DNA of 64,000 bases, from assembly GCA_964035575.1 (NCBI GenBank), contig OZ037845.1, forward strand, positions 682,001-746,000, given 5' to 3'. Under the pieces are notes generated by a model. That model had not been told where the DNA came from. It made no database searches and saw only the letters and a program-made list of their open reading frames with translations. This stretch comes from Rhynchopus sp. YZ270_cl-10. Its lineage: Eukaryota. The translations under genes were made by a program, and so were the position numbers. Of this stretch, positions 16,000 to 41,274 are shown one piece after another (the first letter of the stretch is position 1; each line of letters starts with the position of its first letter).

Positions 16000-16917
16000 T
16001 GGTGTGGCCCGATTTGTGGTTTTGCGTGTCCCAAGAATGGCCCAAAAGTGGGTTAAATCGAGGGGGGGTCCCTTTTTTAATTTGTTACCCGGTGTTTTTT
16101 TTGGGGTGGTTTTCACGCTAGGTCTGACCCGGAGGCACCTCTGCATAGTGACTGGAGGGGAAATTTGGGGTGGTCCGAACCTTTCGGTTAGGAATAATTC
16201 ACAACACGGTGGCTAAAATCGGGGTTTTCTGGGAAGGGATACCCTAAGGGGGAAACCGATTGACCTTGAGTCCTCCTTGGCTTCAAGGAGCCAGACAGGG
16301 GGCACATGGCGTGCCCTGGCAGAATAATCGGGTTGAGCCTGTTAACTGCTGTGCCACAGTTGGTCCAGCTGGTCACTTTATTCCCGATATTCGGGAAGCC
16401 AAAAACCGTGAGGGACCGATAATGACTTTTTTCCTTTGTTACTGTACTGTACTGTACTGTACTGTACTGTACTGTACTGTACTGTACTGTACTGTACTGT
16501 ACTGTACTGTACTGTACTGTACTGTACTGTACTGTACTGTACTGTACTGTACTGTACTGTACTGTACTGTACTGTACTGTACTGTACTCCCAATCCCCCG
16601 TGTATACTGTGTATACTGTGTATACTGTGTATACTGTGTATACTGTGTATACTGTGTATACTGTGTATACTGTGTATACTGTGTATACTGTGTATACTGT
16701 GTATACTGTGTATACTGTGTATACTGTGTATACTGTGTATACTGTGTATACTGTGTATACTGTGTATACTGTGTATACTGTGTATACTGTGTATACTGTG
16801 TATACTGTGTATACTGTGTATACTGTGTAAAGGGCAAAAAAATTAAAAAATACACCTAAAAAAACACGGCCCAAGAATGGCCCAAAAGTGGGTTAAATCG
16901 AGGGGCGGGCCACACCA
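16000..16917. mobile_element. Non-autonomous TIR element, TGGTG...CACCA family, 918 bp
   Basis: 12-bp TIR TGGTGTGGCCCG. 5-bp TSD AATGA at 15995-15999 and 16918-16922. About 36-bp internal direct repeat CCCAAGAATGGCCCAAAAGTGGGTTAAATCGAGGGG near both ends. Confidence 0.88.
16441..16828. repeat. Compound microsatellite (ACTGT)n then (GTGTATACT)n
   Basis: Perfect 5-mer array about 16441-16588 and perfect 9-mer array about 16600-16828, inside the 16000-16917 element. Confidence 0.98.
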
Positions 16918-17823: not shown

Positions 17824-17910
17824 AAAGTGAAGTTGATAGTGCAAACGCAGGGACGCAGAGCACTGACACTCCGCGTGTTATCGAACCCCCGGAGTGTGGG
17901 TTTACATCTG
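17824..17910 (-). repeat. Polar hairpin repeat family B (longest copy)
   Basis: + strand consensus AAAGTGAAGTTGATAGTGCAAACGCCTCTGGGACGCAGGCACTGACACTCC. Copies at about 1626, 14190, 25785, 26546, 28426, 31970, 32753, 35304, 51571 and 57344. Confidence 0.88.
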
Positions 17911-19683
17911 ATAGAGAGAGAGTGGGGTAATTGGGATACTTTTTTTTTTCGTTTTCATTCAATAACTTTTTGCAACGACAATGGTTTTCACCGCTTTTGT
18001 GTCGTAGGAAGTGCTTGTCTTGGGAACAGGAGCACACGAGTGAAATAGGTCAACCGCAAGAAGGGGGGGGAAAGGAGGGGGTCTTTCTGCGTGCTCGTTT
18101 GAGAACAGATGCACGTAAAAAGAGAGAAAATGTTTTGATTTCTTGAAATCATACAGGCAGTGGAGGTTTTTTTATTTCCCCAATAGCGTCGCAGCAAAAA
18201 AACAAAGAAACGACGTGGAAAATAATGGACCTGAATCATGGGGGACAGGGAGTGCATTTTACTGGAGGAGAAAATGAAACCCTGAAGGGGCGAGATCCCA
18301 AAGTGTAACAACTTTTTTTTTTTTTTTTGGTTGAAAAATTGTAGGAATAATAGCAGTTGCCACCTTGCAAACTCCACTATACTTTTTTGGTAAGATGATC
18401 CTAAGCCTCATAACACTAAAACCACCTTGAAGAAAGGACAATTTTTTTTGTTTATTTTTTTGGTTGTAGACTACCATCACAGGATAGTAGTCACAATTTT
18501 TCTTCACAGGATCCATAAAATTAAATAAAAGAGCGACAAGAAAAAGAAAAGAAAAGAACAGAACAACGATAATCGGTATCAACGGAAATCAAACTGAACT
18601 TTTGTTTAATTTGAATCAAAAGAAGAAAAGAAAAAAAACCCCAAAAAAAAGAAAGCCGTAAAAACGCAATGTATGCGCAAGCTGGTATGCAAAAAAGAAA
18701 GTAAAAAATAAAAATAAGAGTAAATAAATGTGTCAGATAAACACAAAAAAGAGAAAAGTTGGACAATAGCAAGCCTCCTACGCACTTTTTTTAATTGTGT
18801 TACTCGCCAATCGTTTTGCATTGTTTGATTCAAAAAGTTTTTTTTTTGCGTAGTATTCTGCTTACTACAAGTCTATGGTTCGGTCCTAGTGTAGACATTT
18901 GTAACTATCAAAGGGGGGGACTGGCGGACTTGTGTTGCTTTAAAAAAAACACCCAAAAATGAGCGTTTATTTGCTTCGTTGGCACGAATATCACGTTTTT
19001 GTTTTGTTTTGTTTTGTTTTGTGCGACGCTATCACCCAGTAGGCAGATAACATTCTGTACGTTATGTGTTTTTTAAAATAAAATCAATCCGAAAGGGATC
19101 AAACAAAATAGGTCAAGGTGTGACCTTTTTGGGGCATACCCTAGAAGGACCCTTTTTTTAAACCTATTTTGGGAAAATCACACCAAGGTCGAAAAAAAAA
19201 TTGTGCGGCAAAGCAAAAAGGGTTTTTTTTGCCACATCATCGAAAGGAAAAAAATGAAACATCAATAAAGTAGTTCGAAAACAGTGTTACCACCCAACCC
19301 AGCATCCCAATAGTATCCAGAATAGAACAAGGGTGAGAGAGAGAGAAAGGGATTCGAAAAGAAGGTGAAAAAGGAAGAATAAAAAAAAAGGGAAAAACTG
19401 TCCTCCCCCCCTGCCGCACCCAGCAGATGTAGCACAACAACAAGACAAAAGCAAGAGACGGTACTATGCAGGCGGCGCGGCTTTCCGAGAATCAAATCTA
19501 AGTTGACGGATGAATATGCATCAGTGCACAATCAAATTTTTTTTTCGTATACTATCTATTCTACTGAATAGAAGGTATAATAGGGTGCACTAAATGTACC
19601 CAATAATATCAAAAAAGTAGAGTTGAAATACACAGCCCTCTTGACAGTGTACCTAAAAAAAAAATAGTATGCCGGGTGAGCGT

Positions 19684-20559: not shown

Positions 20560-21609
20560 GTGAGCGTGTCGTCCTACATAGTAGGTTACAGATAAAAAGA
20601 AATGTACGATTTTGTCTTTTTTTGTGTTATTGTTGTGTTTGGTGAGAAACAGAGAGGGAATGAGGGGAGACAAAAAACAAAGTTTATGGTAAGACAACCC
20701 TGAGAAGGTCATCTATCTGTTGTATGGAATCTACCCGCCTATACAAGAACCATTTTTTTAAAAAAAGAGAGAAGTTTTCTGGGGGGGAAAAGATTACAGA
20801 ATAGTGCAGTATTTCACAAGTTGTGCGTGGTGAACAAAATCAAAAAAAGAAAATTGAAGAACCAAGGAGGTACAGTTTATTTGCCCATGGTAATGCCTCC
20901 TCTCACAAGCTCTCACAGCCTGTTAACGTGTCTCACGGAGACGATCATAGATCACCCAACAATTGTACAAAAGGGATCAGTTTTTTTCCCCCAAAAAATA
21001 AAAATAAAAAAAAATGTAGAAAACGAACCAATCGCGAGACGGGAAAGATATTTTCGTACACCAAATCACAATTTTAAAAATGATTTCCCCCCCTCAAAAA
21101 ACTTAGCTTTAGCAGAAAGCCATCTGAAGATAGTCTTTTAACTATTACCTCGTTTTCTTCTTGCGTTTTGTTTCATTGTGGTGTGTTCCGGGGTATCGAA
21201 AAATACAAATTTTCATTTCAATTCACAACTCTTCACAACTATTCACAACTATTCACAACTCTTCACAAATTTTCACAAAAACGTGTATGTGAAGAGTTGT
21301 GAAGAGTTGTGAAAAGTTGTGAAGAGTTGTGAAGAGTTGTGAAGAGTTGTGAAGAGTTGTGAAGAGTTGTGAAGTTGGCGAAGTCTGGGTGGTGCCTGGG
21401 CACCCAGGTACCCAGGTAGGTACAGGACACCTTTTGGAGGACGTTGGTTGGCAACACAGGAGGTTCTATGTGCAAAAAGTGCCTAAAATGGTGCGGCTGA
21501 CGGGACGATTTGGACCCTTTTGGGCCATTCTTGGGCCATGTGTTTTTAGGTGTGTTTTTTTTTCAACTTTTTGACTTGGATTGCATTTTTGGGATCCCCG
21601 TGCAGTGGT

Positions 21610-22296
21610 CATACTTGGACCGCCCGAAAAAAATTTCGGGCGAATTCGGGCGGATTTTTCGGGCGCGGGTCCCGAGCGCCCGAAATGTGCCCGAAATATA
21701 TTTCGGGCGTTTTAAAGGGAATTTATACGTAATTCGGGCGAATTCGGGCGCACAATCGGTGCACTGGAGTATCTTATGTGTGCTGGGAAGCATGCCACCA
21801 GTGTAAAAATTTTACGCTTTATTTGAAAGATTGGCACAAAATTTGTTCAAAGAAAAAAAAATTGAGCAAAAAGTCCGAAACACCCCGAGAATGGGTCAGA
21901 ACCACCCTGTGACCCGACAATTCACAAAAATTCACCTTGAAATACGAAAAAATGGTGAAACCCCGGTTCATAGTGTGTTTTGGGTGGGAATAAGCACATG
22001 ATAGTCAGAAAACCCGTGTTTGGTGGTGATTCCCAAAGTGCACTCAGGTGTACAAAAGTTTTCGATTCTTGCTTATTTTGACAGATTTGACATCAAATAT
22101 TTCCAAATATAAAAAGTTTTTTGCAAAAATGAATAGAAACCTACCTAGTCGGTTTTCACTAAGGAAAAAGCGCCCGAATCCGCCCGAAATCTGCATTTCG
22201 GGCGTTTTCGGGCAAATTCGGGCGCACAAAATCGCCCGAAATCCGCCCCTAATCCGCCCGAAATGCCCGAAATATATTTCGGGCGGTCCAAGTATG
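21610..22296. mobile_element. Nested TIR element with CATAC...GTATG ends, 687 bp
   Basis: 20-bp TIR CATACTTGGACCGCCCGAAA. Flanked by AGTGGT at 21604-21609 and 22297-22302. Many CGCCCGAA/TTCGGGCG subterminal repeats. Confidence 0.85.
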
Positions 22297-22740
22297 AGTG
22301 GTGGGGCCGACGTTGAAAATTGGACAATTTTATGACCTCTTAAATTTCGGAAAATATGAGCCCGGTCACTAATAGGCGGCCCATTTCGGTCAAAAATTGT
22401 CCCCAAAATCCGGAGTGTATTATTGACCTTTGTGGGCGACGAGACTGTCCTGTGTGAGGTTAACCTACAGGTTAATTCCATTATGGCGGTGGTTGTTTTG
22501 CATCTCTCACACATTATGGATCGACGCACTGGTGAGTCCTTGGCGGTTACTTCGTCTCCTTTCGTCTTATCCGCCTTTTTGGTGGGGATTATTAACACCG
22601 TTTTTAGAAATTTTGTGCGAGTTAGGAAAAAATATGAGAGTACCACAGATACTCCAAAGTTAAAAATTCTTGCTTTAATGGAATTTTTGGGCCTCAAACT
22701 CGGACATCGGAAATCCATAGGGTCCCCCCTATGGTTTTTA

Positions 22741-23372
22741 CACAGTACACAGTACACAGTACACAGTACACAGTACACAGTACACAGTACACAGTACACA
22801 GTACACAGTACACAGTACACAGTACACAGTACACAGTACACAGTACACAGTACACAGTACACAGTACACAGTACACAGTACACAGTACACAGTACACAGT
22901 ACACAGTACACAGTACACAGTACACAGTACACAGTACACAGTACACAGTACACAGTACACAGTACACAGTACACAGTACACAGTACACAGTACACAGTAC
23001 ACAGTACACAGTACACAGTACACAGTACAGAGTACAGAGTACAGAGTACAGAGTACAGAGTACAGAGTACAGAGTACAGAGTACAGAGTACAGAGTACAG
23101 AGTACAGTACAGTACAGTACAGTACAGTACAGTACAGTACAGTACAGTACAGTACAGTACAGTACAGTACAGTACAGTACAGTACAGTACAGTACAGTAC
23201 AGTACAGTACAGTACAGTACAGTACAGTACAGTACAGTACAGTACAGTACAGTACAGTACAGTACAGTACAGTACAGTACAGTACAGTACAGTACAGTAC
23301 AGTACAGTACAGTACAGTACAGTACAGTACAGTACAGTACAGTACAGTACAGTACAGTACAGTACAGTACAG
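22741..23372. repeat. Compound microsatellite (CACAGTA)n-(CAGAGTA)n-(CAGTA)n
   Basis: Three abutting perfect arrays with transitions near 23027 and 23101, inside the 21179-24195 element. Confidence 0.98.
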
Positions 23373-26300
23373 TGCAGTAGTCCTGTCGGGTGGTGTACCA
23401 TTTTTTCCCCAGAGCAACTTAGGTGTAATTGTGGTTAATTGTGTGTACGTGTGTTTGATAACTAGTGGGGGTAATTCTTGCTCAGAATATGGCCCCGACG
23501 TGTACGTGTGTGTACTTGTGCTGAAAGTGTGCTGAAATTGTGCCTAATATAGGCACAGTTCAGGTGAGTATGGTGCTAGTTGCGCCCAGCTGTGTTTTGA
23601 GTAAAACGGTACAAAAAACAGGGAAACAAGTGGTAGTGCCACTGGTACAAAACTTTTCTAGCGAAGCCACGGTACGCAACATTTTGGGTAGAGCTGTGGG
23701 CTACCGCTAGTAATTTTTAGCTGCGTCGCAGGCGCACGGTACGCTACTTTCTTGAGAGTTGTGAACATGTTGAAAAAAAAAAAGGCAACAAACGAACACG
23801 CCGCGGACTTCCGTCGTCCTCCTCCGCACAGGGGGTGGGGTGGTACGGCCAGCTTGACTCACAGACCCACGCTAGCTAGCCCTCTGCACAGCACACTTTA
23901 CCTGACCAGTCCTGCAAAAACCCTGGAAAAAAACACCCCCCTTTTTTTCCCTCCAATTCACAACTCTTCACAACTGTTCACAACTCTTCACAAATCTTCA
24001 CAACATCTGTGTTTTTTTCATCCAAATTTTCATTTCAATTCACAACTCTTCACAACTATTCACAACTATTCACAACTCTTCACAATTCTTCACAAAAAAA
24101 TGGCCAAAAATTATGTTGTGAAAACTTGTGAAAACTTGTGAAGATTGGTGAAGATTGGTGAAAATTTGTATTTTCCGATACCCCGGAACACACCACATTG
24201 AGAATATACGAGAAAGGGTGAGAGGGAGAAAAAATGCTGTATACTCTGGCTGTCATTCCATGGGAGAAAAGGTGGTCAGATAGCCCTAAAGCACCTCGCT
24301 ACCTTTTCTTTTACAGAGGTTTTCAGGGGTTCCCTTGCCACCTGATTTTGTCTGAAATTTGGAGGATTTGGAGGTGTTTTAAACCACCCCTAAACTCCCA
24401 CCAAATTCTACCAAAATTTCAAGGAAAAATCAGGTAGTCTTTTTGTCTCCCCCTCTTCCTGTGTAACCTTCTCTCAGCTTCTGAAACGCAGCACAAAATA
24501 ACAAAAAAAAAAGCATCGTCCCTGTGAGATAAAAAAAAAACCGAATCTTGGAAATCAACGTTTTTTTTGTTATCGACAATCATCAACAATCACCCAAAAA
24601 GAGGTGTGTTCTGACTATCCAAAACTACAGGGCACATCTCATTTCCCATCAGTGCCAAAAAAAAAACTAAACGTTTTCTGTCCTTCAGGGTTGTGTATAT
24701 TTGTTCCGCTTTTGCTCAAGGCAAAAAAAAAACCCCCCAAAAAAAATTTCAAATTTGAAATAGAGTAAGCCATCAAGACCCACAAAAAGGAAAGGAGGGA
24801 AGAGGATGGCCTATATTAGGCCAGGGGGGGATATAACAACGGGAAGGGGTATTTGACTTGAGAAAAGGAGGGGAAGGGTTTATTTTTCTTTCGCGCGAGG
24901 TCCGCTCTCTCTTACTTTTTTCTTTCTTTCGAACCAACTAAAAAACAAAAACAAAAACAAAAACAAAAAAACCTGAAGAGGGATGTGCGCTTCACTGTGC
25001 ACACACTCCCAGCTTCCCTTTAAACTAGAGTGGAAGGGTGGAATGGGATGAGAAACAGGGGGCATAGCAGGGGGGGGGGGCAAAAAAAGGAAGAAAAATT
25101 GATGAATCTAAGCCTTTCTGAACTTTGTCACCTTTTAAAAAGAAAAAAAAACTAAAAACAGTGGGGAAAACGTTCAAAAGGGGAAAACACTAATCCCTTC
25201 ACTGTCCACTGGGTTATCGGGGGGGAAAATGGACCTTTCGGGGCCATAAACCATTCAACCTTGTGGATAAAATTTCTTCGCAAAAATATGACTAAATAAA
25301 TGAGGGGGCCCATTCCTTGGCCAACCATCCCTCCTCCTCCTCCTCCCAAATTTTCTGTGTAAAGTGCATTTCTTTTTGTGTATCAACTAATGACCTGTCC
25401 GAGGACGGGTTCTGCAAAAAAGTGACGTACATTGTGTGTTTTTTTTGTTTCTGTTGTGAAGAACATCACTTTTTTGCACCTTGAAATGAAATTCTACGTT
25501 ACCGTTTTACCCTGACTGCACGGTGGTGTGTGGTACAGGCGACGGACACTGTCTTGCTTGCATCTGTGTTTGTCTTTGGGCGTACCTCAGGCAAGAGGGA
25601 TATACCCCCTACCTGGTTGGTATAAACGACAATAAACCCGGGGGCTAAAATATACATTACGCAGACGAGTTCCATCAGTTGTGTTGTTAAAACTTGAGTT
25701 TTTTTTTCTTGTGTTTTGTTTTCATGTCAAAGAAAGCTGAACATAAGCCTTGCTTGGACATCTCGAAACAAAAAAAAAAGGGGGGTAGAGTTAGTAGCGC
25801 AAACGCCTCTGGGACGCAAAGCACTGATGCTTCGTGGGGTATATCGAACCCATGGAGTGTTTAAAAAAAAAGAAAATGGGTAAGACTTACAGTGGTCTTT
25901 TGTTTTTGTTTAGTTTCCTTGAATATTATCACATTTTCTTTGGGGATTCCCTTAGGAAACGGAGATTAGCATTTTATGGTTTTTTTTTTATGCAAAATAA
26001 AAGAAAAAAGTGGGTAAGATGAATCTGAGACTCTGCTCAGTCACCTCAAGGGTTTTGCTTTTTTTTTGTTTGTAACAAATTACAAATAGAAAAATGCACT
26101 TAAAAGCGACATTGAATACAAAAAGGGAGTGGGGAAGATTCTCCCAAAAAAGAAAACTGTTCCTTTTATTGACACCATTGTGCCTTTTTGTTTTGAATTA
26201 AAAAGAACAGGGCCTGTACCATTTCGGGCAAAAAAAACAATCGCATTGTGGGGTGAGGGGGGGAGAGACAAATTAACAACAATCCACAACCACGTTTTTT

Positions 26301-29184
26301 TTTTGTTTTTTTTAAACGATCCATTTGATTTTTGCGTTGTTACCGACAAACCACCCACCAAGGGTGGTATTGTACAGCAATGCACCCCAAAGGGCTAGGA
26401 TACTTACAGACATAATTTTTTTTTTCTTCCCTTCATTTTGGGGCAGCAGACGGAGCTACGGGAGAGCAAAAACACAGGATTTTGAGATAGTGCACACCAT
26501 CAGCAATGCTACGGTGCACAGCAATCGTACTCTCAAAGGGGAAAAAAAGTGAAGTTGATAGTGCAAACGCCTCTGGGACGCAGGCACTGACACTCCACAG
26601 GAAAAAAAAAAATGGGGTGTGTATGTGTGGTGTTTGCCACACATCAACCCGAACTAAAAGGAAAAAAAATAGAGTTTTGCAACAAATTTGAAGAGAGGGG
26701 GTACTGGGGGGCTCATATGTGCTCGCAAAAACAAAGAAAACACGAAAGGTGTTGGATGTTCTCACGAACAACACATCTTTTTCACAAAACCTTTTAACGC
26801 ATGATGCGACAAGAAAAAAAGGTCCTGGGTTTCCCTTGGGTTGAAAAGAAAAAAGGAAAAGGGTTATAAAAGGATCCTAAACCTCTGCTGTCTTGAAAAA
26901 AGTTGATTTTTGAAATAAACAAAAAGCCTTTTCGTGAATTATACTACAGTGCATGACAAGTATACAACTGTGGATCCATTTTTGAGAAAAGAAAAAGAAA
27001 AAAGAGTTGAGATGATATGCTCAGCCGTTTTTAATTTGCGGCTTTCACCTTGAAAAAAAAGGGTGTCTCATTTTGCAAGGGGTGTACATAAAAGTAGAGT
27101 TGAAATACAAAGCCTCTCGTGAACAGTGTACCGGGGGGGTGGACACCCAACCATGCAGTCCTACAATCCATTTCGTTTACATCTAATAAATAAAAACACC
27201 GTGTGAATTGACACTCCCCATCTTTTCTTTTATTTGGGGCAGAGGTGACCAAAATAACGACAACTTTTTGAGCAAACATGCTTTGGTTTCATTTTTGTTT
27301 TCTGTGTAGTGACATTCGAGGATGTACTCACTTTTTCGTTTTTTTTCCTTCTTTGTCCCGTTGGGACCGTATTTCTTGGGGAATTTGAAAGGGGGGTTTT
27401 TTTTGTGTTTTTTTGTGTTATTTTTTTGCTTCAGGGGGAAGCCAACATACCCACGCACTCAGATCAAGCACAAAAAAAAGAGGGAGAACAACAAAATCGA
27501 TAGACGCTATCCTATATCTTCTCACCACAGCATTTTTTTTTTTTTTTGTTTTTTTGTTTTTTGAAAACTTGGTTGTATTAGTGTAGCCACCCTAGAGTGT
27601 GCTCCACTATGTTTTTTTTTGTTTTTGGATTACCTAGGCGAGTAGGCGGGTTGTACGTCACTGGCACAGTGTGCCTGAAACGCCTTCCCTGTTGCTGCTG
27701 TGTACTGCATTTTTTTTTCTACCCAGGGTTGTCATCTCTTCTTTGAAAACCCTAATTCACGAAATACCCAAAAAAAATATTCGAAAATCCTCACATTATG
27801 TTACAAAAGAGGGCGAAATATTGAGACGTTCCTATTCCGGTAACAGACGGGGGTGATCTGTAAGGGAGTTGAATAAATACTCAATAAACGAAGAACAACA
27901 GCAAACGACAACACATCAACACCCCCACCTAAAAATACGGAATCTACCCCCAATAGTACCAAATAAAGATGATGGGAGGGTGTGTTAAGGTAGCCCTGCA
28001 AAAAAGAGAATTGAACCGTAGTCCAAAACATCTTTTATTTATTTCGGTGCGAACCTGAATGGGGTTTTGGGGAGAAGAAACCTGAAACCAAATTATATCA
28101 AGGCGCGAAAGAAAAAAAGTATGCCTCCATCAAATTTTTTTTTTTGTTTGGCCTTAGACAATCACAAGATCATTTTTTCTTTCACAGAATCCTTAAAAAA
28201 GAGAGCAAATAGAAAGGACATCTCTCTTGCATTACCTCAGAAAATCGCTATTCTTCCATAAGGACTGATCGGTAAAAAAAATAACCCCAAGCAAAAAAAA
28301 AAAAAACCCCCCCTTCTGGTACTAGATCCGATCCAACCGTATCTAGTACCCTCAGAGCAAAGAGTTGTTATAAACCAGACAACCCCCTTATCCTACCCCA
28401 CATCCCCAATCGAGTCTCGGAAAATAAAGTGAAGCTGAGTGACTGCAAACGCTTCTGGGACGCAAGGCACTGACACTTTTTCATATTGTACAACTATTCT
28501 GAGAGACACAAAAGAGCAGTTGAAATGTGCTAAAACGCATCTTTGTCGGATGCACAAAAGGCACCGAGGCTCCGTGGAACAGATGCATTTTTTTTTTTGT
28601 AGCATTGGCAAATCTCACTTTACACCTATTGGCAAAAAGATCTGTACCCAATGTCGGTCGAAGCCTTTATTTAAAATTTTGAGACGATCTGTGTGCCCGA
28701 CAACATCCATTTTTTTCAGATCCCTCTCGCTCTTTATATTTTCCCCCTAAGTGTCTATAGGGTACTATCGTTTTGTTGTCACTCTGCATTGTAGGGAAAA
28801 CAACACTTCACAGAATATTGTTCAAAAATTATTTCAAAAAAAAAAAAAAAGACGGAAAAAAAAAATGCGGAAAAATGCGAAATATCATTCGGATAAATTC
28901 ATTTGCCTTACCCCTTTGTTTGTTTATTTGAAATACCGTCAGAAGAGCGGTGGGTATGTCGTACACATAAGCATTTGGTGGTGGGATGGGGGAACAAGGA
29001 AAACAAAAACAAAAACAAAAAAAAAACAGAATAAGACATCACGAAAACCACCCTTCCCCTCCCAGGCAATCGCCCTGAGCGCCCACCTCGGGGTGGGTGC
29101 TCAGGTTACGTCCTCAAGTTGCCCGGAGCCTCCTAAATAAATCATTGAAAGATGAACACGCCTCTGGTGCATGCACATCTTAAG

Positions 29185-29370
29185 GTACCGTATTTGGTGT
29201 GGCCGACGACCCCAAAATAGCAGAAAATAGCAGAAAGTAGCACAACAATAGCACCCCCTTTCAGCCACACCAGTATTCGTACAAAAGTATCAACCGTAAA
29301 AAATGGTCAAACTTCCAGAAGAATTCTGAAAAGATCGAACATATTTACGGTCGATAATTTGTACGAATAC
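29185..29370. mobile_element. About 108-bp MITE (GTACCGTATTCGTACAAAA TIR), interrupted by the 78-bp element
   Basis: After removing 29195-29277 it aligns with the reverse complement of 33747-33854. Confidence 0.75.
29195..29272. mobile_element. 78-bp miniature TGGTG...CACCA element
   Basis: TIR TGGTGTGGC/GCCACACCA. 5-bp TSD GTATT at 29190-29194 and 29273-29277. Internal AAAATAGCAG repeats. Confidence 0.85.
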
Positions 29371-31460
29371 GATAATCACCTATGTTCGGTATAAAAAAAA
29401 GACATTCGCTTTTTTTTCACCAACAAAAAAAAAAGAAGAAAAAAAATATTGAACAAACGACGTTGGTGTTCTGGTTGGGAAATAGTGTCGTTGTCACGGT
29501 ACAAATTTCGTATTTTTTTTTCACCCACTGAATTCAAAAAATCACAAAAAAAAAAAAACAAAAGACGAAATAAATTTCATATACTTTCCATTCAAAGAAG
29601 AGAAAGCACACAAAGGAGGAAAATAAATAAAACAAAAAAAAATGAACCACAACAAAAGAATCATAAGAACACCGCAAATATTCACTTTGGTCCCTTTTTT
29701 TACTCTTTGTGGATTACTGGTGAATGTTTGTGGTATTCTTACCCCACCCCCCACCCCACCGCAACCCCAGCAAAGCAAAAAATGGCAATTTAAAAAAAAA
29801 AAAGTACATACCCACCTAAAAAAGGCGGGAACGCTGACAGAACAACAAAATCAGTCTCGAAGAAAACAAAAAGAAAATGGTTGGTCTGACCTCTTGCAAA
29901 TAAAAAAGGGAATAATTATTGATTGCAATTGCAGCCAGCTCCGACTGACCCACGTACAATGTCAACAGGGGGGGAAAAACAAATTCTGCTGACATTTAAA
30001 GAAAAGAAAAGAAGGGAGGAGTGGATAGGGGGGGGAGAAGGAGGGGAGAAAAAAGACAATGAGAAAAAAAACGACATATCACCTTTGCATCCGTATTTCC
30101 ATTTTTTGTTTTTTTTGTCGGAAATCTAAAAAAAATTATGTTGGTGTAGACAAGAAGTAGTCGGTATGAATACAACTTCGAGCCAAGTTTTTTTGTAACA
30201 GTTTTTTTTTGAAAGCTCGTCGGAATCGAAGAAAAAAAAAACCAAAAAAAAAACAAAACAAAAGACAAAAAAAAAAATGGTAAGGGGGTTGCCAAAATAA
30301 TAATAAAAAAATGATCCAAAGGAGGGGTATGGGGAAATGAACATGAAATCTCTTTGTTGCGAACGCTTTTTTTAAATTTTCTTCTTTTTTTGCTATTTTG
30401 TTGTGAACCAAAAAAAAAGGGGGTAAAGTTTGCCAGCGCAAACATCTGTGGGATGCAGGCGCTTTAAAAAGAGAAGGAATTTTTTTGTCAGATAAGCCTA
30501 ATAAGCTCCCTCTCCTGCTATTGCCACTTTTGAAAAAAAAAATTTTTTTGAAGATGAAAATGGGGGGGTACCCTTCACAACGGTCTAGTCGGGGGACTAC
30601 TAGTATCTCCTCTAGTCAAGGTTGTTACTACTGGGTACTGTGGTTATTACCTCTATTCACACTAATAGCACTACCCAACTATTATTGTGACGAATCGTAC
30701 TACCAAAAAACCACTATAGTCGTAACACACACTTATTTGAGACTTAGGAGCACCACTAGTCGTCCTGACAGACGGCTGTGTTCATCTTCCTTTTTTAAAG
30801 GCGCATCTTCAGAATACTGTATGTGAAGAACAAGAAGAACCATAGAAAGCATAACAGGAACTCTCATGGTTCAAGGATGGAGTATCTGAAGCCCTTTCCT
30901 AAAGGGGTTTGCAAGAAGAACTTAGTACACTAAAATGGGAAGTTTTGATGAGAACCTAACGTTAGATTCTAAAGAAGAAGGGTGGAGTCAAGATGCACAA
31001 TACGAAAACACCCCACTGTGCAAAGAATGGGCGGGGACATTATCTCTCCCAATTTCTTTCGTTTCGAGATTTTTTTTTATTTGTCAATAAAAAGGCGAAA
31101 GAGTTGAGTGCAAACGGGATGACACTGAAACTGAAAATAAATAGGAGGTTGGTGTTGTTTACAAAACGCTTCTGAAGTGCAGACACTGAAGCCCCGTAAG
31201 ATAATATTGAATTTCTTCAGGAGCTTCACGTTATAACAGAAGAAAAACACAGACAACCTGAAATCAGCAAAAATGACAAATTTTCTTTCAAAAAAATAAA
31301 TGTTTCGAGCAAAATATTGTAAAAAAAAAAAGTTGATAGATCAGAATAGACAAAAAATGCATACACTTTACGCTTTTTTTTTGGACAGTATTGGTTGGGT
31401 ATTTCGCCCCTTCCGGTATGTTTTCGATGGTTTTCTTTTGTGTGTCCAAAAAAAGAACCT

Positions 31461-31497
31461 TTTAAGATAGATGTGCCTCTCGTGCACACATATCTTA
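31461..31497 (-). repeat. Polar hairpin repeat family D (best copy)
   Basis: + strand AAGATAGATGTGCCTCTCGTGCACACATATCTT. Copies at about 13846, 29145, 32438, 33536, 50509, 51356 and 57488. Confidence 0.8.
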
Positions 31498-33181
31498 AAA
31501 AGAAAAAGGGAGGCATGCACATTCACAAGGCTAGTTTGAGAAGGAAAATAAAAAAGGTTGTGGGAGGTGCCAATTTTGTCGGCATTTTAACCTAATTTTT
31601 TTTTTTTCCCTTCTGTTCTCACAAAGAATGATACCACGCTCTCCCTTTTGACACAAAAAAAACCAAATTTTCTGAAAAAATACAGCACACTTTTGTATCC
31701 AAAAAAAAACAAAACAAAACAAAAACAAACAGAGACAACTTGAACGAATGTGCCTCAGGTGTACACATACATAACAATAATAAACCTTGAACATGATAAT
31801 GGACACATATTCTATATCCATACACAGCGTGGTGTGCGGATAGGTTTGAAAGGAGTGAAGAAGACTAACCCATGCCAGGGAGGAGCGAAAAAAAAAGAGC
31901 CAATAGGAAATAACAAAAGAATCTGATCTCCCGCTTTTCCAGGAAGCTATTTAAAAAAAAAGGGGGGAGTTTGAAGGAAGTTGCAAAAACGCCTCACCGT
32001 ACGGCGGATGCAGGCCTCTGATTCTCCACAGGGTTTATCGAACCCTAGAAATCACTTCATTGGCATGCAGACGGATACCATGAGGGAGGTTGTAAGCAAC
32101 AACAATGCGTGACTCATTTTTTTGAAAAAAAAACGAGAAATCAAAAATTCTTGTGATCCAAGCAAAAAAAAAGAAAGATTGCAGATTATGCCATTACTTC
32201 AGGTATACACTCTGAAGAAGGCTTCAATGCGTAAGGATGCTCTTATGAGCAATTTTTTTTTTCTCATTTTCCTATTTTTTCTTTTCTCTCCGAGGCATGT
32301 GGGCAAAAAAAAAAGACAAAATTGTAAAAACAAAAACCAATTTTTTTTGGAGTGAATAATATTTGGTCAACCCTTGATATAAGGGTACATCAGATATCCA
32401 TATCCTCCAAGAACACGGCAGTCAAAAATAAGAATATTTGAAAAGATGATTGTGCCTCTCGTGCACACACACACATCAAATAACAAAAAATGAAAGTTTG
32501 AAGTGCAAACCTTTGCCTGTGGACGCAACAAATATTTATAAGATGACACCAAAAACCTTGAGTCACCTTGTATGCCAACAAAATGGGAGGTACTGATTGC
32601 AGACACCCCCCCGACTGACCTACAGGATGAAAGCACAACAAAAAAAGACAAATATTTTGTGAGATGAACCTAAGCCTCGCTGAGCTAAGTCACCTATATG
32701 ACAGGGAAAGCTAAACGATGGGTTATTGTGCTTGGTCCACCAAACAAAAGAGAAGTTGAAGGTGCAAAAACGCCTCACCGTACACTGGACGCAGGGCGCT
32801 AAAATAAATACCTCCCCCTTCCCCACCCCCTTCGGTGGCAAATTTGAAGTTGCATTGTACTAATTTCATATACTTTCTAAAGAGAAAGCACAACGACACG
32901 CAGTTTGCATTTTTTTTTTTTTAAATTGGGTTTGGGAGGAATGTAATTTGTAATAAAGGCTGGGTGCGTGGTTTTGGGAAAGCTGTGGGTAACGCTAATA
33001 ATACTTTGTGACAAAATACACAACTTGAAAATATTTAAAAAAGAAATCCTTTTGAAGTATGGATAGGGAGAAATGGGGCAAACAATAGAATCATCACTCT
33101 TTGTTATGGATGAATCACCAATCCAACAATCCTCCCACCGAAAGAGGTGGGATGTGACCGCTCAAATGTCACCCCCAATAA

Positions 33182-33300
33182 AAAGTTGACTTGAAATACA
33201 AAGCCCTCTCGTGAACAGTGTACCTGGATTACAATGACCGGCTGTACCGGGGAGACCCCAAACCATGCAGTCCTACAATCCATTTTGTGGTTTACATCTG
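33182..33300 (-). repeat. Polar hairpin repeat family A (longest copy)
   Basis: + strand core TTGAAATACAAAGCCCTCTCGTGAACAGTGTACC. Other copies at about 5742, 19615, 27091, 44773, 45041, 50244, 57168, 57301 and 61615, all in the same orientation. Confidence 0.9.
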
Positions 33301-33746
33301 AAAAAAGACCAGGGTATGTACACAGGCACACCTCATCCACAAAGAGTTGTGCCAGAGAGGAGACAAATAGGACAGTAAATGATCATTTTTTTTCGGTTTT
33401 GTCATTTTCTTTTTTTTCGTTTGATAATTAGGTTTAGGGAATGGGTGTTTGAAAAATACACAAACTGACACACAAAAAATAACACTGAAATAAGATGATA
33501 AAAATAGGGTAAGGGAACCAAAAAAAATGAATATTTGAAAAAGATGTGCATCAGTAAAGCACGTCTTTAAAAAAGAAGTTTTTAAAAAAATGGGGAAGTG
33601 AACACAATGTCTCTCATGCGAACTCCTTCACAAAAGAGCAACTATGCCATAACCCCTTAACTCTGTTTGCACGACGGTGAAGTGAATGACATGTCTTGTG
33701 GCTTTGTTTCGGCTTACAACGGCAAAACCACAAAAGAATAACCACT

Positions 33747-33854
33747 GTACCGTATTCGTACAAAATTATCGACCGAAATAATGTTCGACCATAGGGTTTT
33801 TCTGGAAGTTTCGACCATTTTTACGGTCGATAATTTTTGTACGAAATACAGTAC
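33747..33854. mobile_element. About 108-bp MITE, uninterrupted copy
   Basis: Imperfect TIR GTACCGTATTCGTACAAAATTATCGACCG / CGGTCGATAATTTTTGTACGAAATACAGTAC. Confidence 0.75.
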
Positions 33855-34363: not shown

Positions 34364-35125
34364 TCATTTTCTCCTTTGTCCGAGGAGTTCAACCATATTC
34401 GTGCCCATTGCTTTTCTCTGCTCATGACAGGTCGAGCTTTCGATGGTGCGGAAGGTGTGGAGGTGGACGTCTGCGGCACGGCGGAGCTCGTCGTCTACGT
34501 CGCCGTCTGCGTGGAGGTCTTCGAGTAGGCGGGCTAGGCTGCGGGAGGCAAGCAAGACAACGTTGCTGTCGGTTGTGTCCTGCAGGATGCGCTCCTGCAG
34601 ACGCTTCGCTGTGAGGTGCGAGATCTGCGAGATAACAACCTCATTCCTGACATTCAGCAGGGACGCGGAGTGGAGCAGCTCCCGGCACGTTGCCTTGCAG
34701 TCTGTCGACACTCCGCACCGAGCGGGGAGGATCAACGACGCAGCCATCTCCCTCCTCACCTTGCACCTATGCTCTGGAACGACCTTCTGATAGATCAACC
34801 TCGTCTGCACAACACCAATCAACTCAAGCCCCACCAAAATCCTCTCAACCAACTGCTGTTCCTTCAAAGAAGGACTATTTGCGTCAGTCGAATAATGTGC
34901 AAGAGAAGAAATACAGTGCTCTCCAGAAGGCGAAGGGGGTGGCTGGGAGTGTCCCGAGCCGCGTCCTCCGCTAGTGTTCTGCAGGTATAAAGATTCTTGG
35001 GAGGACCCCGTAGTGCTCACACTGCATACACTCAGGGTGTCTTCGCTTTGTTCAGCCATACGCCGTTTCACCTCGCGCGCGCCGAACACCGAGCTGTAGT
35101 ATCTGAGTCGTCTGTGGTCTACCAT
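34364..35125 (-). CDS. Hypothetical protein, 253 aa
   Basis: ATG-initiated ORF filling a GC-rich island between A/T-tract flanks, on the same strand as the cluster. No family recognised. Confidence 0.7.
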   Translation of the reverse strand: MVDHRRLRYYSSVFGAREVKRRMAEQSEDTLSVCSVSTTGSSQESLYLQNTSGGRGSGHSQPPPSPSGEHCISSLAHYSTDANSPSLKEQQLVERILVGLELIGVVQTRLIYQKVVPEHRCKVRREMAASLILPARCGVSTDCKATCRELLHSASLLNVRNEVVISQISHLTAKRLQERILQDTTDSNVVLLASRSLARLLEDLHADGDVDDELRRAADVHLHTFRTIESSTCHEQRKAMGTNMVELLGQRRK

Positions 35126-35489: not shown

Positions 35490-38400
35490 TCACCACCTAC
35501 GGGAGGGGCTCACTGCCGCAGATTCGAACGGACTGCGGAGGCTTGTGGTCTCGAGGAGGGGCGACGTGGGGACGGACAGCAGCTCCGTCGGCATCCGGTG
35601 CGCGACCTGCGCCTCTGAGAGCACCACCACCATCTCCCTGCGGAGACATTCGTTCTCCTCCTCCGACGAGAGGAGACGTTCCGCATGGCTGGCGAGACGC
35701 TCCTCCATGGTGCTTCGTATCAACTCCTTCGACTTTACGCTCTTATCAAGACGCACCTCAAGCTGTCGAATCTTTTGATACAACTCATCGCGCTCTGCAT
35801 CACCCATGACACCAGATTTAATGTCTTCGTGAACTTCGGGCTGTGGGTAGAGTGGAGTGTGGTAGGTGGGTGTGGGGGATGTAGGGGGGGTGTGTGTACC
35901 CTAGCCTCGCCGATGATGGCCTCTTCCAAAGCCTTCTGCCTGTCGCGTGCCGTTTTGTGTAGTTTTTTGAGTTCGATCGTCTCCGCGGAGTATTCGTCGC
36001 AGCGCTGTACGAGGCGTGCCTTCTCCTCGCGGAGTGTCTCGTTTGCGTCCTGTGCCTCTGATAGGGTGCGGGTCAGTTCGCGTTTCGTGGCGTTCTGTGG
36101 TGTGGTGTGTTGATAACAGAGGTGGGTAACGCCTGGAGTAGAGTATAGCCCATAGTGCGGTTAATGCCTGAGGGTAATTCTTGTACAGAATATGGCCCTT
36201 TGATGTGATGTGGCGTGTGGTGTTTTTTGATTACTACTGGGGCATTCCTTATAGCGAATGATGGACCAATGTGTGGTTGTGATATCAGAAGATATGCCCC
36301 CAGATTTCCCAGATTTTGGATCAAGGTGCTTGACCGGCCCGGCGAAGTTCGTCGTGCTGTCGCTTATGGCGAAGCTGGACAAGGACGACAGCAAGAAGTA
36401 CAGCACCCCCAAGGACAGGAACATGACTCTGCGTAGAGACCTGAAGACAGCTCTCGCTGCTGCCCCGTTCCTGTGGGAGACAAGCCGCAGTGACTTCGCG
36501 GACGGACTGTGGCGTGCGCTGAAGGATCGCACAAGGTGTGGCGCAACGATGCACAAGGACGGGGCCTTTCGCCTTCTCGAGCACCCCTTTCCCATCCCTT
36601 CCGCCCAGTGTGCTGACGCGAGGTTCGCGAAAGAGTTCGTTCGTGCGTTGTATCGCTACGACGAGGTGTTGAAGTCTGTGCCGGCGAATAACTTTTGGAC
36701 TTTTCTGCAGAGGGACTTGCTTTTTGGGTGTGCAGATTCGCTCTCTGGTTGTGTGGCGTATCACACAAATAAGTTACGGAAAAGCGATCAGGCAACGGCC
36801 ATGCCGCTCACCCCCATGCAGCAACGCGAGACTGCGGCTTCGTCGACTCCCACATGCTCGTTCTGGGACTCCTGCTTCGTCGACTGCCTCACCGCACCCT
36901 CCGCAAATTTTGGAAGCGCTGGGAACACTGAATGAGTACATGAATACACCAACCCCCGCAACCATCACCGGCATCCAGCAACGCGACACTCCTGCTTCGT
37001 GGACTACCCCGCAGCCCGAGCTTCCCACTCAGCAGAGGGATTCTCCCATGCGACGACCGCCTGTCGGAGTACCGCTTCCCTGCCCTATGCCTGCGCCTTC
37101 TCCTTCCGTCATGCCTGCGTCTTCTCCTTCCTCCAGCGGCAAGCAGTTGGGCTCCGACTTGGTGGCGAATCTCAAGAAGTCGACGGAGAAGCCTGTTCTC
37201 AGGGTTTCGGAAGCACACGGCATCCGCCGCGCTCTCTTCGAGGGTTGGTACGATTCCTTCTTCGCGGCCTTCATCTGCGACCTCCCTGAGTGGACGGGTT
37301 TCCCGGAGCTCCTGACGACGTACTTCCCCCGCATTCCTTTCGCCTCCAAAGACCACAGAGTCAGGGAGTTATTCGTAAAGGAATGGCGTAAGAGCCAGGC
37401 GATGTTCGCCAGAGCGACGGAGTTTACGGACTTGTCGTGCATCCGTCGCCACCTCCAGGAGAACCGCATGCCCTTGGGGAGTACGCAGGCGTTGTCTGTT
37501 GGGAAAGGGCACAGCATCCCCTCGTTGGAAGCCGCCCGGACGAAGCGAGTGTGCGCCTCCTTGCGCAGGGCCCTCGACCAGTGCATCGAGCATATGATCC
37601 AAAATGATAGTTAAATGCTGGTCCCGCATAATTGTTACATATCTCATTCATATGAGCGAAAAATGCAAAAGCAAAGAGAGCAATATTGGTACATGAACAC
37701 AAAATAAATGTGTCATTTCCCCCCCTGGACGATCCAACAACATACCAGATCCTCAATGGTCTCATGACACTTCGTCAGATCCAACGCCATCGCCTCTGCA
37801 GTTTCATTCGCCTTTTGGAGGTCTTTCTGTTTCATATTTTTTGATAATTTTTTTTCTCCTTTTTTCCACATACCTTCAACCCATCACGCTCCTCTTCGTT
37901 GTGCTGCAGATCTTTCATTAACCCAGTATTTTTGTCTACTAGATTTTGCTTTGTTGCCTGCAGATCTGCTATTGTGGATTCCGCGACCTTCAGCGCATCG
38001 TCACCACGGAAGATCGCTTGGCGGAGAGAGTCCGCCTCTGAGCGCAGCTCGGTATTGACTGCGTGCGCGGCTGATAGCTCGAGGAGGGTGGTTTTGAGGC
38101 GGGAGGATGATTCTGCCAACTCTTCGGCGAGACGTGCTTTTTCATCTAAAGCTTCTTGCAAGGCGATGCGCAGCCCTTCTACAGTCTCCGTCAACCGCGC
38201 AACCTGGTTTGCCAACTCATCTCTCTCCTTCGTGAGCTCCCAGATCTGCTCTCTTGCCTCTCTCAACTCACCACGCAAGACTTCAATTGTGTTCTCAGCC
38301 TCCTCAAGGGCAGCTTTCAAACGCATTTTCTCCTTCGTTAACGATTCGATAACGTCATCACGCTCTTCGATCGTCCTCTGGAGAGAGCGGATCTCACGTT

Positions 38401-41191
38401 GCAGGGTGTCACGTTCTGTTTCCCATATTGCTTCTTTTTCGGCGTGTTCGCGAAGAATATCGCGTTTTTCTTGTATAAGGCGGGTCATTGCTTGGTTCTG
38501 TTCTTCTCCTGTTTGGCGGGTAACAGAGAGCTCTTCTTGCGCGGTTTCGAGAAGGGAGGAAAGGGTGGTGGTGCGTTCTTCTAAGGCCCCGCATCGTTCG
38601 GTGAGGGAGGTGTTGATGGAGGCAAGCTCTTCGTGGGCGGCAAACATTTGTTTTTGTTCGCATGCGCGTCGGTCGGTGAGTTCGTCGCGTTCTTCGGTGA
38701 GAAGCGCGATTTTTCCTAGAAGAATCGGCTTCTCATCTGCAAACTCTGCCAGCGCTGCCGCTGTGCCTTCATAACGCAGAGACAGCTCCTCCAAAGCACT
38801 CTGCAAAACACTGCGGTCCTGCTCTAAACTCTCCACAGACGTCGCATTGCGTGCCATCTCCTTCACATTGAGCGCAATAAGACCTTGCTTCTCCTCTTCA
38901 CGCTGTCTCTCGAGAAGCATCGCATCTTCTTGACAGCGTGCAAGCTTTTGTTGATAATCATTCGCCAATGCAGTGAACATTCTGTCATTCTGTGGTTCAA
39001 TGTGAACCAAATCCGGTAAAGTTGTTGGTGTGTTCGGGTACAAAACCTGTTGGTCCATCTGCAAACGAAGCTGGACCATTTCCCCTTCCCTTCGTGTGGC
39101 CAAAGCCTTAGCTTCAGCAGCTTCCTCTCGGAATAACTGTGCCTCACTCTCCGCAGAAACTAAAGCAGCATCGCGGATCCGAACAATTTCCTCTTTTTCT
39201 GCAATCTTCGCGTCTGTCTGAACCCTGAGGGTTTGAGCCTCCTGGAGTTCTGCCCGTAGTGCGGTTATTGTGTTGTCTTTGGTAAGAGATGCGGCGAGTT
39301 GTTCAGGTGCTTGGAGAGCGTTGTGCTGAAGCAGTCGCTGCAGCTCTGATTCGAGGGCAGCAATTTGCTGTTCGTTGTGGGAGTTGTGTGTGGCATTGTG
39401 TTGCGCGGTTTGCAGATTGGTTGCTTCGTGTACGTTGAGCTCTGCAGTTAAAATCTTTATAGTATCGCGGGCCTGGAGGAGATCTGCCTCAAGGGTAGCT
39501 GCAGTGCGAAGTGCAGCTTTGTTGTTCGCATTCTCTTCGGAGAGCGCGGTAACAGTACGTTCCAATTCGTGAAGAAGCTCTGTGTGCGCCGGAGGGAAAT
39601 TCACTTGATTTGCTATTGTTGCTGCGTTTGCGGTTCGCAAATCGTGTTCTAGACGTTGCACCTCGCTTCTTTGCATTTCTATCTCACGGACGTAACGTTG
39701 TTCACACTCTGATTCACGTCGTGCACTGTCCTCCCTCAGACGCGCCAGATTCAACTCAAACCCTGCCTCCTGCGACGCAAGCCTTCTCTCCAACCCTTCT
39801 ATCCTCGCACTCTGCCTCTGCACCAAACCACTATAATCCGGTGTCACACCAGCCCCTTCTGGTACCCAACGTCTGCCTAGAGCGGATAGCACGTCGTCCT
39901 GCAGATGATACGCCGTCATCGCTGCGTTCTCCTCCTGCAAACGCGCCATGGTGTCTTGGAGGATGCGCACCCTCTCGGCACCCCCTGCACCGCCCTTTAA
40001 TGCTTCCATATGAATATGTGTCATAGCATCGACCTCGCGTTGAAGCTGCACCACACGGCGTGATGGAGACTGTGTAGGAACAGCATCGGTCCACAGAGGT
40101 GTCGCAGACCCGCTTCGATATGCTGGAACCGTTTCTGCTATGGTGCCTGGAGACGATGTGCGTGTCATATGCATGGTGGAAAGGTCTACTGGACATCTCG
40201 GGCGTGTCACATAAGTTCCGGTAGCAGAATCCGTCACAACACACCAAGACTCAAAGACAATATGAAGCTGCTCCACAGAAACCCACTGCGCATCGATGGC
40301 ACGAAGCCCTACCTCTGCTGGGAACGGTGCTGTCATATGCTTTTCGACAATCGGGGTGTACACGAGGACCCTTCTGTTTGCTACGGCTGCGACAGTGTAT
40401 AACGCCTTGGGCTGCTGCAGGGTCCCTGAGGGGAGGCAGAGGGGGCGAAGAAGAACTAATGCTTGGGAGGATGCGATGGACTCAAATTGGGATGGTTCTG
40501 TGGAAAACGGCGTTTCTTCCAAACCACGTCTGTTGTCTGAGAGTGCAAGCGCCGCTGCCGCTAGCGTTGGTGTTACAGAAGACACCCTCGCATACCCTCC
40601 CAAACACTTCGCCAAAGCCTTCTCCGCAAGAGGCACCCACAACCCCGCCTCAGGTTCCGGTGTGCACAACGCATGCATCGGCATCCCTTTCCTCCACGGA
40701 ACCAAATCGTCCACAATAATAGCGTCGGGAAGATTCACCAATACATGCCCACCACCAGGTCCTAGTACACATGCCTCAGATGGGACCAAATCTGCTGAAG
40801 AGATTAAAGTAAGAAGACAAAGCCAGCGCTTGCTGGAGCAGATGCCCGGCACAACCAGGGGGTGGCAATCGGTGTGGATAGAGCTAGGTGAAGGAGGGTC
40901 TGGTGATAAACGTGACGCAGCTTCGCGGATGCGAAGCCACTGCACGGCATCACTCCCAGGGGTGACGTCGGGTGGGAAGGAAAGGTCTACGAAGGTCAGA
41001 CGCATCTGCTTTGCAACGTGCAGGACAGACGCGGTGTCCAGAGGATCCACCTTCGCTAGGGCAGCTGCAGACGTCATGGCTGCAAGCTGTGCACTCACCA
41101 CAGTCGACCCTGTTCGTTCCATTAACACAGGAAACGCTCTGTAATGTGCATGTGCATGTGCATGCGCATGTGAATTTACATTATGCGCCAT
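35490..41191 (-). CDS. Catalytically inactive calpain-like (CysPc) domain fused to very long coiled coil, 4 exons (41191-37874, 37826-37746, 36094-35900, 35840-35490), about 1314 aa
   Basis: FVDLSFPP, WLRIRE, IIVDDLVP and LWVPLAEKALAKCLGGY are calpain motifs. The catalytic QGxxGDCW is replaced by PGICSSKRW. Three phase-0 GT-AG introns (37827-37873, 36095-37745, 35841-35899) keep the coiled coil open. Confidence 0.8.
36258..37614 (+). pseudogene. Nested opposite-strand gene of unknown function with one apparent frameshift near 36850-36870
   Basis: Two overlapping GC-rich + strand ORFs (36258-36935 and 36724-37614) share a QQR(E/D)T/SP repeat across the frame change. The region lies wholly inside intron 36095-37745. 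Confidence 0.55.
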
Positions 41192-41215
41192 GTTCGAAGA
41201 AAAAAGGAAAGACAA

Positions 41216-41274
41216 TCCACCTGATTTTAGTGTTTGTTTGGCAGAAGAATGCTATCAGGTCAAAATCAGGTGGA
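41216..41274. repeat. Short palindromic element (CCACCTGATTTT family); related copies at 24340-24435 and about 5568-5630
   Basis: Perfect 13-bp IR TCCACCTGATTTT / AAAATCAGGTGGA. The same terminal motif bounds a longer fold-back at 24340-24435. Confidence 0.55.

Follow-up and report, generated by a model that had tools for sequence, protein, structure and literature searches.

Two families of small hairpins, A and B, were noticed in a preliminary description of the 64,000-nt stretch of the Rhynchopus sp. YZ270_cl-10 genome analysed here (contig OZ037845.1, positions 682,001 to 746,000; hereafter the window), which ascribed to them one fold on the gene-sense (minus) strand. These hairpins proved to be the last third of longer, high-copy repeats with a common 5′ head. 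Families A and B are probably short interspersed element (SINE)-like retroposons, whose predicted 3′ stem-loop would be read by a non-LTR reverse transcriptase (LTR, long terminal repeat). This reading is preferred because the repeats are present in high copy number, end at a fixed 3′ position, are truncated at the 5′ side, occupy T-run sites and have an RNA-type fold.

Full-length copies are about 117 nt long in family A (33185–33301) and about 85 nt in family B (17827–17911), the overall range being about 85–120 nt. Both families are non-coding and share a 13-nt 5′ head and the same layout: head, hairpin 1, terminal hairpin, a 9–11 nt tail of the (T)CAA type and a T-run. Hairpin 1 varies widely among the long copies; in the full-length A copy (33282–33225) its predicted folding energy is −23.9 on the minus strand versus −15.1 on the plus strand, while in three long B copies it carries a B-box-like loop (GGTTCGA at 17827–17911). 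Copies of A and B in the window are the following:

33185–33301, minus strand: full-length A copy with head, hairpin 1, terminal hairpin and tail
17827–17911, minus strand: full-length B copy with A-type head, GGTTCGA loop in hairpin 1 and deleted terminal loop
25786–25862 and 31966–32050, minus strand: two long B copies with the B-box-like motif
26549–26598, minus strand: 5′-truncated B copy with the end of the 3′ arm of hairpin 1, the terminal hairpin, an 11-nt tail and T-runs on both sides
27094–27186, minus strand: A copy that retains the 5′ head and has lost an internal part of hairpin 1; its terminal hairpin is at 27132–27104
50247–50294, minus strand: A copy whose truncation falls within the 3′ arm of hairpin 1
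57302–57397, minus strand: B copy followed by an A copy in its T-run, in the same orientation
5742, 10678, 19617, 44776, 45044, 57168, 57302 and 61617: other A copies

Copies of both families stop at a fixed 3′ position, and their 5′ ends vary. Eight of the 11 A copies in the window are without the head, and six of these eight start in a 14-nt zone at the junction of hairpins 1 and 2, that is, at the foot of hairpin 1 (p = 6e-4 for the clustering, a post hoc test). Damaged copies persist at 61617, 57302 and 17827. The edges and copy numbers were also determined genome-wide from contigs of five public sequencing runs, whose recorded kind is absent. The contigs revealed a sharp 3′ edge at 26542–26546 followed by T-runs, and B-type 5′ edges at 26588–26597. 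The 5′ edge of A lies beyond 27176 at the shared head, and the flank beyond it is diverse and T-rich, which argues that A is not the stub of a long interspersed element (LINE). Contigs of run X4 have a gap at 27035–27059. Relative to single-copy sequence, the summed contig depth was 9,618 times for the B core and 3,285 times for A, with lower bounds of 310 and 106 times, respectively, if overlap inflates the depth 31-fold. A and B occur in hundreds to thousands of copies. Scaling the density in the window to 112 Mb gives approximately 24,500 B copies and 98,000 copies of all families, both of which are upper guesses. Per kb of non-coding DNA, the window holds about 1–1.5 copies.

Re-reading of the letters gave the same A and B hairpin sequences on the minus strand as those described before. 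The terminal stem of the B copy spans 26588–26560 and is followed by the tail down to 26549 and a T-run at 26548–26542, while the A stem at 27132–27104 is one G shorter than those of the copies at 33182 and 50244. RNA folding predicted on the minus strand all parts of the proposed structure, namely the lower stem, the 2×2 CU/UU internal loop, the upper stem and the loop ending in AGA. The tail, which had been called the same in both families, is common only as far as UCAA and the T-run, and nothing beyond these is shared. The better fold of the minus strand was evident in both families. For B, the predicted energy was −21.7 kcal/mol against −15.6 kcal/mol on the plus strand (z-scores −3.4 and −1.4), and the minus strand was more stable than 200 of 200 shuffled sequences. 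The A consensus gave −7.3 versus −3.2 kcal/mol and the A copy at 27091 −4.2 versus −1.3 kcal/mol; the A consensus is no stabler than its own shuffles (z = −0.54; 57 of 200 fold equally well). With DNA parameters A had practically no fold (−0.4 kcal/mol compared with −7.3 as RNA), and the strand gap of B narrowed to −8.5 on the minus versus −6.6 on the plus strand. Since A folds as RNA and not as DNA, and since profile matches of the hairpins fall on one strand (see below), the earlier proposal of a single-stranded fold of the transcribed strand, as opposed to a double-stranded DNA palindrome, is upheld.

The commonest non-Watson–Crick pairs, three in A, two in B and one in C (one of three further hairpin families, C–E, described below), are G-U on the minus strand and none is A-C, as had been noticed for A and B. 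Of the alignment cells, 92% conform to the pairing of the stated structure in family A (11 copies), as do 91% in family B (9 copies) and 86% in family C (9 copies), whereas control structures slid along the same alignments are paired in 14–58%. Loop length varies among the copies: those at 32748 and 31966 have loops of 11 nt, that at 17826 has lost its loop, and about 9% of the summed contig depth of B has an extra U in the internal loop. Cross-detection by covariance models was weak: the B model found A copies only at E 1.8–3.6, and the A model found one partial B-like tail at E 2.3. The fold common to A and B is real by inspection, though weak as a detector. As A and B are the 3′ ends of longer repeats with a common 5′ head, their fold is probably shared by descent or through one copying enzyme, and not by convergence of unrelated motifs of untranslated regions (UTRs).

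To compare the strands, 55 cores were scored from the 62 listed copies of all families (seven partial or degenerate copies were left out), and 494 inverted repeats obtained from 1,510 tested sequence segments served as controls. Stability was unequal between the strands, with 47 of the 55 cores folding better on minus, while the controls were balanced (242 versus 236, with 16 ties). In a strand-symmetric, Watson–Crick-only alignment the ratio of G-U to A-C pairs was 35:8 in families A–D, 3:8 in family E and 197:161 in the controls; for all five families together it was 38:16 (Fisher p = 0.04 against the controls). Copies of one family are related by descent, so neither the fold counts nor these pair counts are independent and they mostly count a consensus repeatedly. 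Distinct departures from the consensus were therefore counted in 29 aligned copies. Changes away from Watson–Crick pairs led to G-U in 10 and to A-C in 9 cases, and among all 51 distinct changes the pair was kept in 20 on the minus and likewise in 20 on the plus strand, where the observed transition rate predicts 19.8 by chance (p = 0.53; p falls to 0.01 only if transitions are not favoured). The aligned copies contained five double compensatory changes. The covariation score of family A was reached by 417 and that of family C by 209 of 500 shuffles, indicating no covariation. Genome-wide contig variants gave 10 rows, of which four concerned paired positions of the A stem (three keep the minus-strand pair and one breaks it), and were not used. 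Selection on the fold at each genomic copy, as implied by the preliminary description, thus found no support in the near-equal changes to G-U and A-C. Since copy-specific changes go equally to both, the G-U asymmetry was inherited from the source elements: it is a property of the founders and is not visibly maintained copy by copy, perhaps with some selection among sub-lineages on top of it.

The other carrying observation is polarity. Self-comparison and profile searches of the window yielded five hairpin families (A–E), which gave 11, 14, 12, 10 and 9 matches, respectively, at E < 0.1, after three D cross-matches lying on C copies had been dropped. All 56 matches, including 18 copies that were not in the seeds, are on the minus strand, and the best plus-strand profile match had an E value of 1.2; this evidence comes from one 64-kb window with a single gene direction. 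Covariance models agreed with the minus-only polarity of A and B. The heptamer of the A loop occurs 11 times on minus, each time in such a hairpin and outside open reading frames (ORFs), and twice on plus. Palindromic repeats of the terminal inverted repeat (TIR) type occur in the same window in both orientations; the hairpin families have neither the TIRs nor the two orientations by which miniature inverted-repeat transposable elements (MITEs) and double-stranded DNA palindromes are recognized. T-runs away from the elements are skewed as well, 62–74% of them being on minus. This skew was rejected as the sole cause of polarity, because 47 of 47 A–D matches are on minus (p = 7e-7 at the strongest skew). 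Representatives of the other families are the following:

45284–45322, minus strand: family C hairpin with a 7-bp stem, a 2-nt 3′ bulge, a 6-bp stem and an A-like loop
31462–31500, minus strand: family D hairpin with a pyrimidine internal loop and an A-like loop
27562–27612, minus strand: family E hairpin with a 20-nt tail, flanked by A-runs
2479, 18332, 41497, 42026, 43383, 44452, 44620, 45709, 46180, 51238 and 52138: other family E copies

Family E has A-runs on the minus strand at both sides, its 3′ flank being 71% A. Its single polarity despite these A-runs indicates that target composition does not set polarity. Ten of the 12 E cores fold better on minus, where the tail lies 3′, while the B model found the family weakly on the plus strand (E 0.45 and 3.1). 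Its excess of G-U pairs lies on the plus strand. Hence it is ambiguous which strand of the family is the sense one: E could be A-tailed and in sense, or T-tailed, related to B and fixed in antisense. The inferred trans-splice site at 41427 has one E copy 70 nt upstream of it.

The flanks of A–D copies contain 50–62% T (about 50% in the 5′ flanks), and copies nest in the T-tails of one another, as at 57302–57397 and at contig joints. The RNA of the elements could be copied into such sites by target-primed reverse transcription, its U-rich end base-pairing with a T-run. Synthesis would often end at the foot of hairpin 1, or else short sub-lineages would spread, either of which could yield hairpin-only copies; the part of PMC10830416 drawn on here offers no support for stalling of reverse transcriptase at stems. 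Selection on the fold would act on those RNAs that get copied, and inserted copies would decay without strand preference. Polycistronic transcription might set the polarity during or after insertion, in that copies on the opposite strand would give rise to double-stranded RNA and be purged, or in that insertion is coupled to transcription.

Several observations weigh against a retroposon origin of A and B. TSD-like candidates (TSD, target-site duplication) of 7–11 nt, all starting with T, were seen at 44776, 26549, 57168, 27094 and 61617, and the B copy at 26549–26598 has a 9-nt TSD-like direct repeat that is not significant given its T-rich flanks. Two permutation tests on 19 copies, the second devised after the first had been non-significant, revealed no TSD excess over mismatched or permuted flank pairs (p = 0.34, 0.20, 0.15 and 0.59). 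A partner LINE did not appear in the window either: none of the 60 scanned ORFs, out of 73 non-coding ones of at least 95 amino acids, reached the Pfam cut-off. The B-box-like motif is present in only three long B copies and in no A copy, no A box was noticed by eye, and families C, D and E are without a long form in the window. From target composition alone, 26–38% antisense copies would be predicted, none of which was seen, so that an extra step must be assumed. The decay test is based on 51 events in imperfect alignments, and the covariation score of B, reached by only nine of 500 shuffles and accompanied by three double changes, would also fit selection on the copies.

Evidence on transcription came from run X5, which was taken as RNA solely by inference from a splice-like contig. 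This contig of 4,246 nt begins with 21 unaligned letters at the AG at 41427, and its alignment stops exactly at the GT donor at 37874, with 671 letters beyond. In X5, unique contigs flanking the B copy at 26549 and reaching the A copy at 27094 had depths of 13.7 and 12.9, compared with 1.4–2.5 in the intron and 18–20 in the exon. The X5:X1 ratio was 0.44 for B, 0.21 for A and 0.3–0.7 for the other hairpin bins (0.2–0.7 overall), while TIR-dominated bins had 0.008–0.10. Contig depth reflects expression poorly and carries no strand information; as a hint only, these values place the elements mostly in mature transcripts. Twenty-one of the 62 listed copies are in an ORF-free 8.3-kb region (24978–33301, minus) downstream of the ORF 34364–35125, probably a long 3′-UTR or other transcribed spacer. 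No copy was found in the 2.0 kb between 35840 and 37874, which is mostly intron and for which about three were expected. The possibility that the hairpins mark non-canonical intron ends was rejected, as the two sides of the copies have similar contig depths and no GT–AG joint is listed there.

The same data bear on an explanation in which the hairpins are working mRNA elements, that is, signals for 3′-UTR stability, localization or translation read by one fold-recognizing protein and selected site by site, like exapted SIDERs of Leishmania, with mobility having only spread them. The strict polarity (56/56), the dense clustering downstream of ORFs with 21 copies in 8.3 kb and none in 35840–37874, the preference of the RNA-like run for hairpin bins over TIR bins and the similar geometry kept by five families all fit this explanation, as does the mostly sense orientation of SIDERs in predicted 3′-UTRs (PMC2689281). 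However, the copies decay in a strand-neutral manner, A is no stabler than shuffled sequence, loops are deleted or expanded in several copies, and about 1.5 copies per kb of non-coding DNA are too common for a gene-specific role. Therefore, we consider it doubtful as the general explanation, though it can coexist with the retroposon reading for a subset of copies. An extended form of the latter, which seems unlikely, pictures a clan of minimal retroelements, each hardly larger than a single RNA hairpin, with about 10^4–10^5 copies in transcribed non-coding DNA, the families of which would be polarity-locked by transcription, through coupled insertion or RNA interference (RNAi) purging, and whose fold a host protein would read as a post-transcriptional code throughout the genome. 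In this picture, family E may be an element of this kind that became fixed in the reverse polarity.

Two further origins were weighed. The copies might be retrocopies of small non-coding RNAs, two-hairpin, U-tailed and RNA polymerase III-like, with a cellular role of their own; the discrete 5′ head common to A and B, the two-hairpin layout, the U-run end and the B-box-like loop suit such RNAs. Hairpin 1 varies widely, however, no Rfam model matched the 64 kb at its gathering score (of the 14 sub-threshold hits in 25700–33400, none is on an A or B hairpin copy), and the window has no tRNA, which makes this origin improbable. H/ACA or AGA-box small nucleolar RNA, selenocysteine insertion sequence (SECIS), sarcin–ricin loop and group II intron domain V were rejected as identities, because the necessary boxes, quartet or triad are absent and Rfam lent no support. 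Exact-pattern scans of metagenome contigs, viral contigs and prokaryote genomes gave no match. Alternatively, single-stranded DNA elements of the Helitron/Helentron or REP type could have been moved by an HUH enzyme, with G-T hairpins forming on the displaced non-template strand. Helitron transposition needs the 5′ end, and a CTRR end and subterminal inverted repeats are the criteria by which Helitrons are recognized. Most copies here are without a 5′ end, and their 3′ ends read CAAC, CTAC, CAGC or TCAC, with no CTRR and no convincing subterminal inverted repeats; moreover, A has no DNA fold (−0.4 kcal/mol) and the strand gap of B shrinks to −8.5 versus −6.6. Insertion into a displaced strand would explain the polarity, heads start with TC in two of three full heads, 9–11 nt separate the hairpin from the 3′ end, the flanks are rich in T, TSDs are not proven, and Diplonema papillatum has Helitron-like ORFs (PMC10161547). 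On balance, a DNA-based origin appears very improbable, and SINE-like retroposition remains the preferred reading.

The window is diplonemid nuclear DNA with all its genes on minus. The RPS9 gene (7486–8052, minus) has 91% identity to RPS9 of D. papillatum and 80% and 77% to those of two other named transcriptome sets, and its best PDB match is 6zj3, the Euglena ribosome. From the 26 ORFs scanned, all six with a Pfam match are on minus, in agreement with the directional gene clusters of D. papillatum, a species that also has a spliced leader and RNAi genes (PMC10161547). A calpain-like coiled-coil gene occupies 35490–41427, with an inferred spliced leader acceptor at 41427, a GT–AG intron running from 37873 to about 36094 and another, small intron; within the large one lies GC-rich, ORF-like sequence on plus (36255–37611) without a Pfam match. 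At 58050–61398 a GH81 endo-1,3-beta-glucanase extends over two ORFs, which hold its N- and C-terminal domains and are probably one intron-containing gene. Element copies at 1621–1660, 10678–10772 and 17827–17911 end 3, 57 and 97 nt before an ORF start, respectively, and such copies may be part of 5′-UTRs or provide pyrimidine tracts. Tandem TTTCAA-type repeats resembling the tail of the elements were seen on minus at 63646–63700, and the hexamer TTTCAA occurs 75 times on minus versus 24 times on plus in non-coding DNA.

Other repeats of the window are of different kinds. The segment 19899–23753, about 3.85 kb long, has a 30–40 nt repeat in inverted copies at its borders and nested palindromes and tandem arrays between them; it is likely a non-autonomous DNA transposon and contains no hairpin-family copy. 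Palindromes whose inverted arms consist of 10-nt TTGTGAA-type tandem units lie in both orientations at 21166–21350, 23943–24201 and 46355–46829. MITE-like palindromes of about 100 nt (29273–29374, 33747–33854, 21609–21709 and 22206–22297), high in copy number by contig depth and low in X5:X1 ratio, were used as a control only. Very high-copy repeats at 42428–44400, with bins up to 1,400 times the single-copy depth, are nearly absent from the RNA-like run, and long tandem arrays of 9-, 10- and 14-nt units of the GTACT/CAGTA type occupy 16380–16900 and 22640–23420.

Diplonemids rank with the most abundant protists of the sea and, like trypanosomes, they probably regulate their genes after transcription. 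Abundant hairpin repeats of one polarity, apparently present in mature RNA, are candidate raw material for such post-transcriptional regulation, and with them the causes of transposon orientation can be tested cleanly where the whole genome is transcribed. The G-U asymmetry also calls for caution: when the consensus of a repeat shows wobble pairs on one strand only, the selection that they record can have acted on the RNA being copied instead of on the inserted copies. Literature searches, covering listings and the opening parts of abstracts, found no description of these hairpins: the D. papillatum genome paper (PMC10161547) does not use the words hairpin or stem-loop in its main text, and the supplements examined gave no match, though the repeat section of the main supplement may list related motifs. 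The covered part of PMC12621601 concerns intron-end pairing, and that of the preprint 10.64898/2026.07.29.740908 notes only that repeats are pervasive.

By analogy, A and B seem to work like SINEs, with class membership only partly shown. In RTE-related SINEs, a T-run tail follows a 3′ hairpin that shows compensatory changes, and the TSDs begin with T, about 10 nt after a T stretch; the elephant genome harbours SINEs of both T-type and A-type (PMC6007223). The T-tailed members of this group (plant Au-like, Sauria SINE and AfroSINEs) resemble the elements here in being short and non-coding and in having a 3′ hairpin, a T or short-repeat tail and a T-rich target, and the pairing of A-type with T-type families is reminiscent of A–D versus E (PMC6007223). 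Unlike them, the elements of the window are shorter (85–120 nt, mostly 35–50 nt), have no full pair of A and B boxes and follow host transcription in strict polarity. A terminal stem-loop just before a short tail is also present in eel UnaL2/UnaSINE1 and zebrafish ZfL2 (PMC4176376, PMC3747384). Proteins of such stringent LINEs recognize stem and loop separately (PMC4176376); a stem read generally and a loop read specifically, as in UnaL2 and ZfL2, would allow several families with one fold.

Among DNA elements, Helentrons, HINEs (DINE-1) and non-autonomous Helitrons have a 3′ hairpin near the end, T-rich sites and no obvious TSD. The elements here differ from them, as A does not fold as DNA, CTRR and clear subterminal inverted repeats are lacking and most copies are 5′-truncated.

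The nearest analogue in setting is the Leishmania SIDERs. SIDER1 and SIDER2 are likewise euglenozoan, high-copy elements that lie between the genes of directional clusters, mostly in sense and with a T-rich upstream flank, and mainly in 3′-UTRs (PMC2323293, PMC2689281, PMC2424063). Their sense to antisense ratio is about 4:1 overall, with mostly sense copies in 3′-UTRs and an excess of antisense in spacers (PMC2689281). SIDERs are about 550 nt long, GC-rich and ingi-derived, with a 79-bp signature at the 5′ end and an A-rich 3′ end; as regards class assignment, the repeats of the window, with 85–120 nt and a T-run 3′ end, are set apart by length and tail alone, and they are further distinguished by a conserved 3′ hairpin, the T tail itself and the finding of no opposite-polarity copy in the window. 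With these differences, the hairpin elements of Rhynchopus would represent a free-living parallel to the SIDERs of Leishmania.

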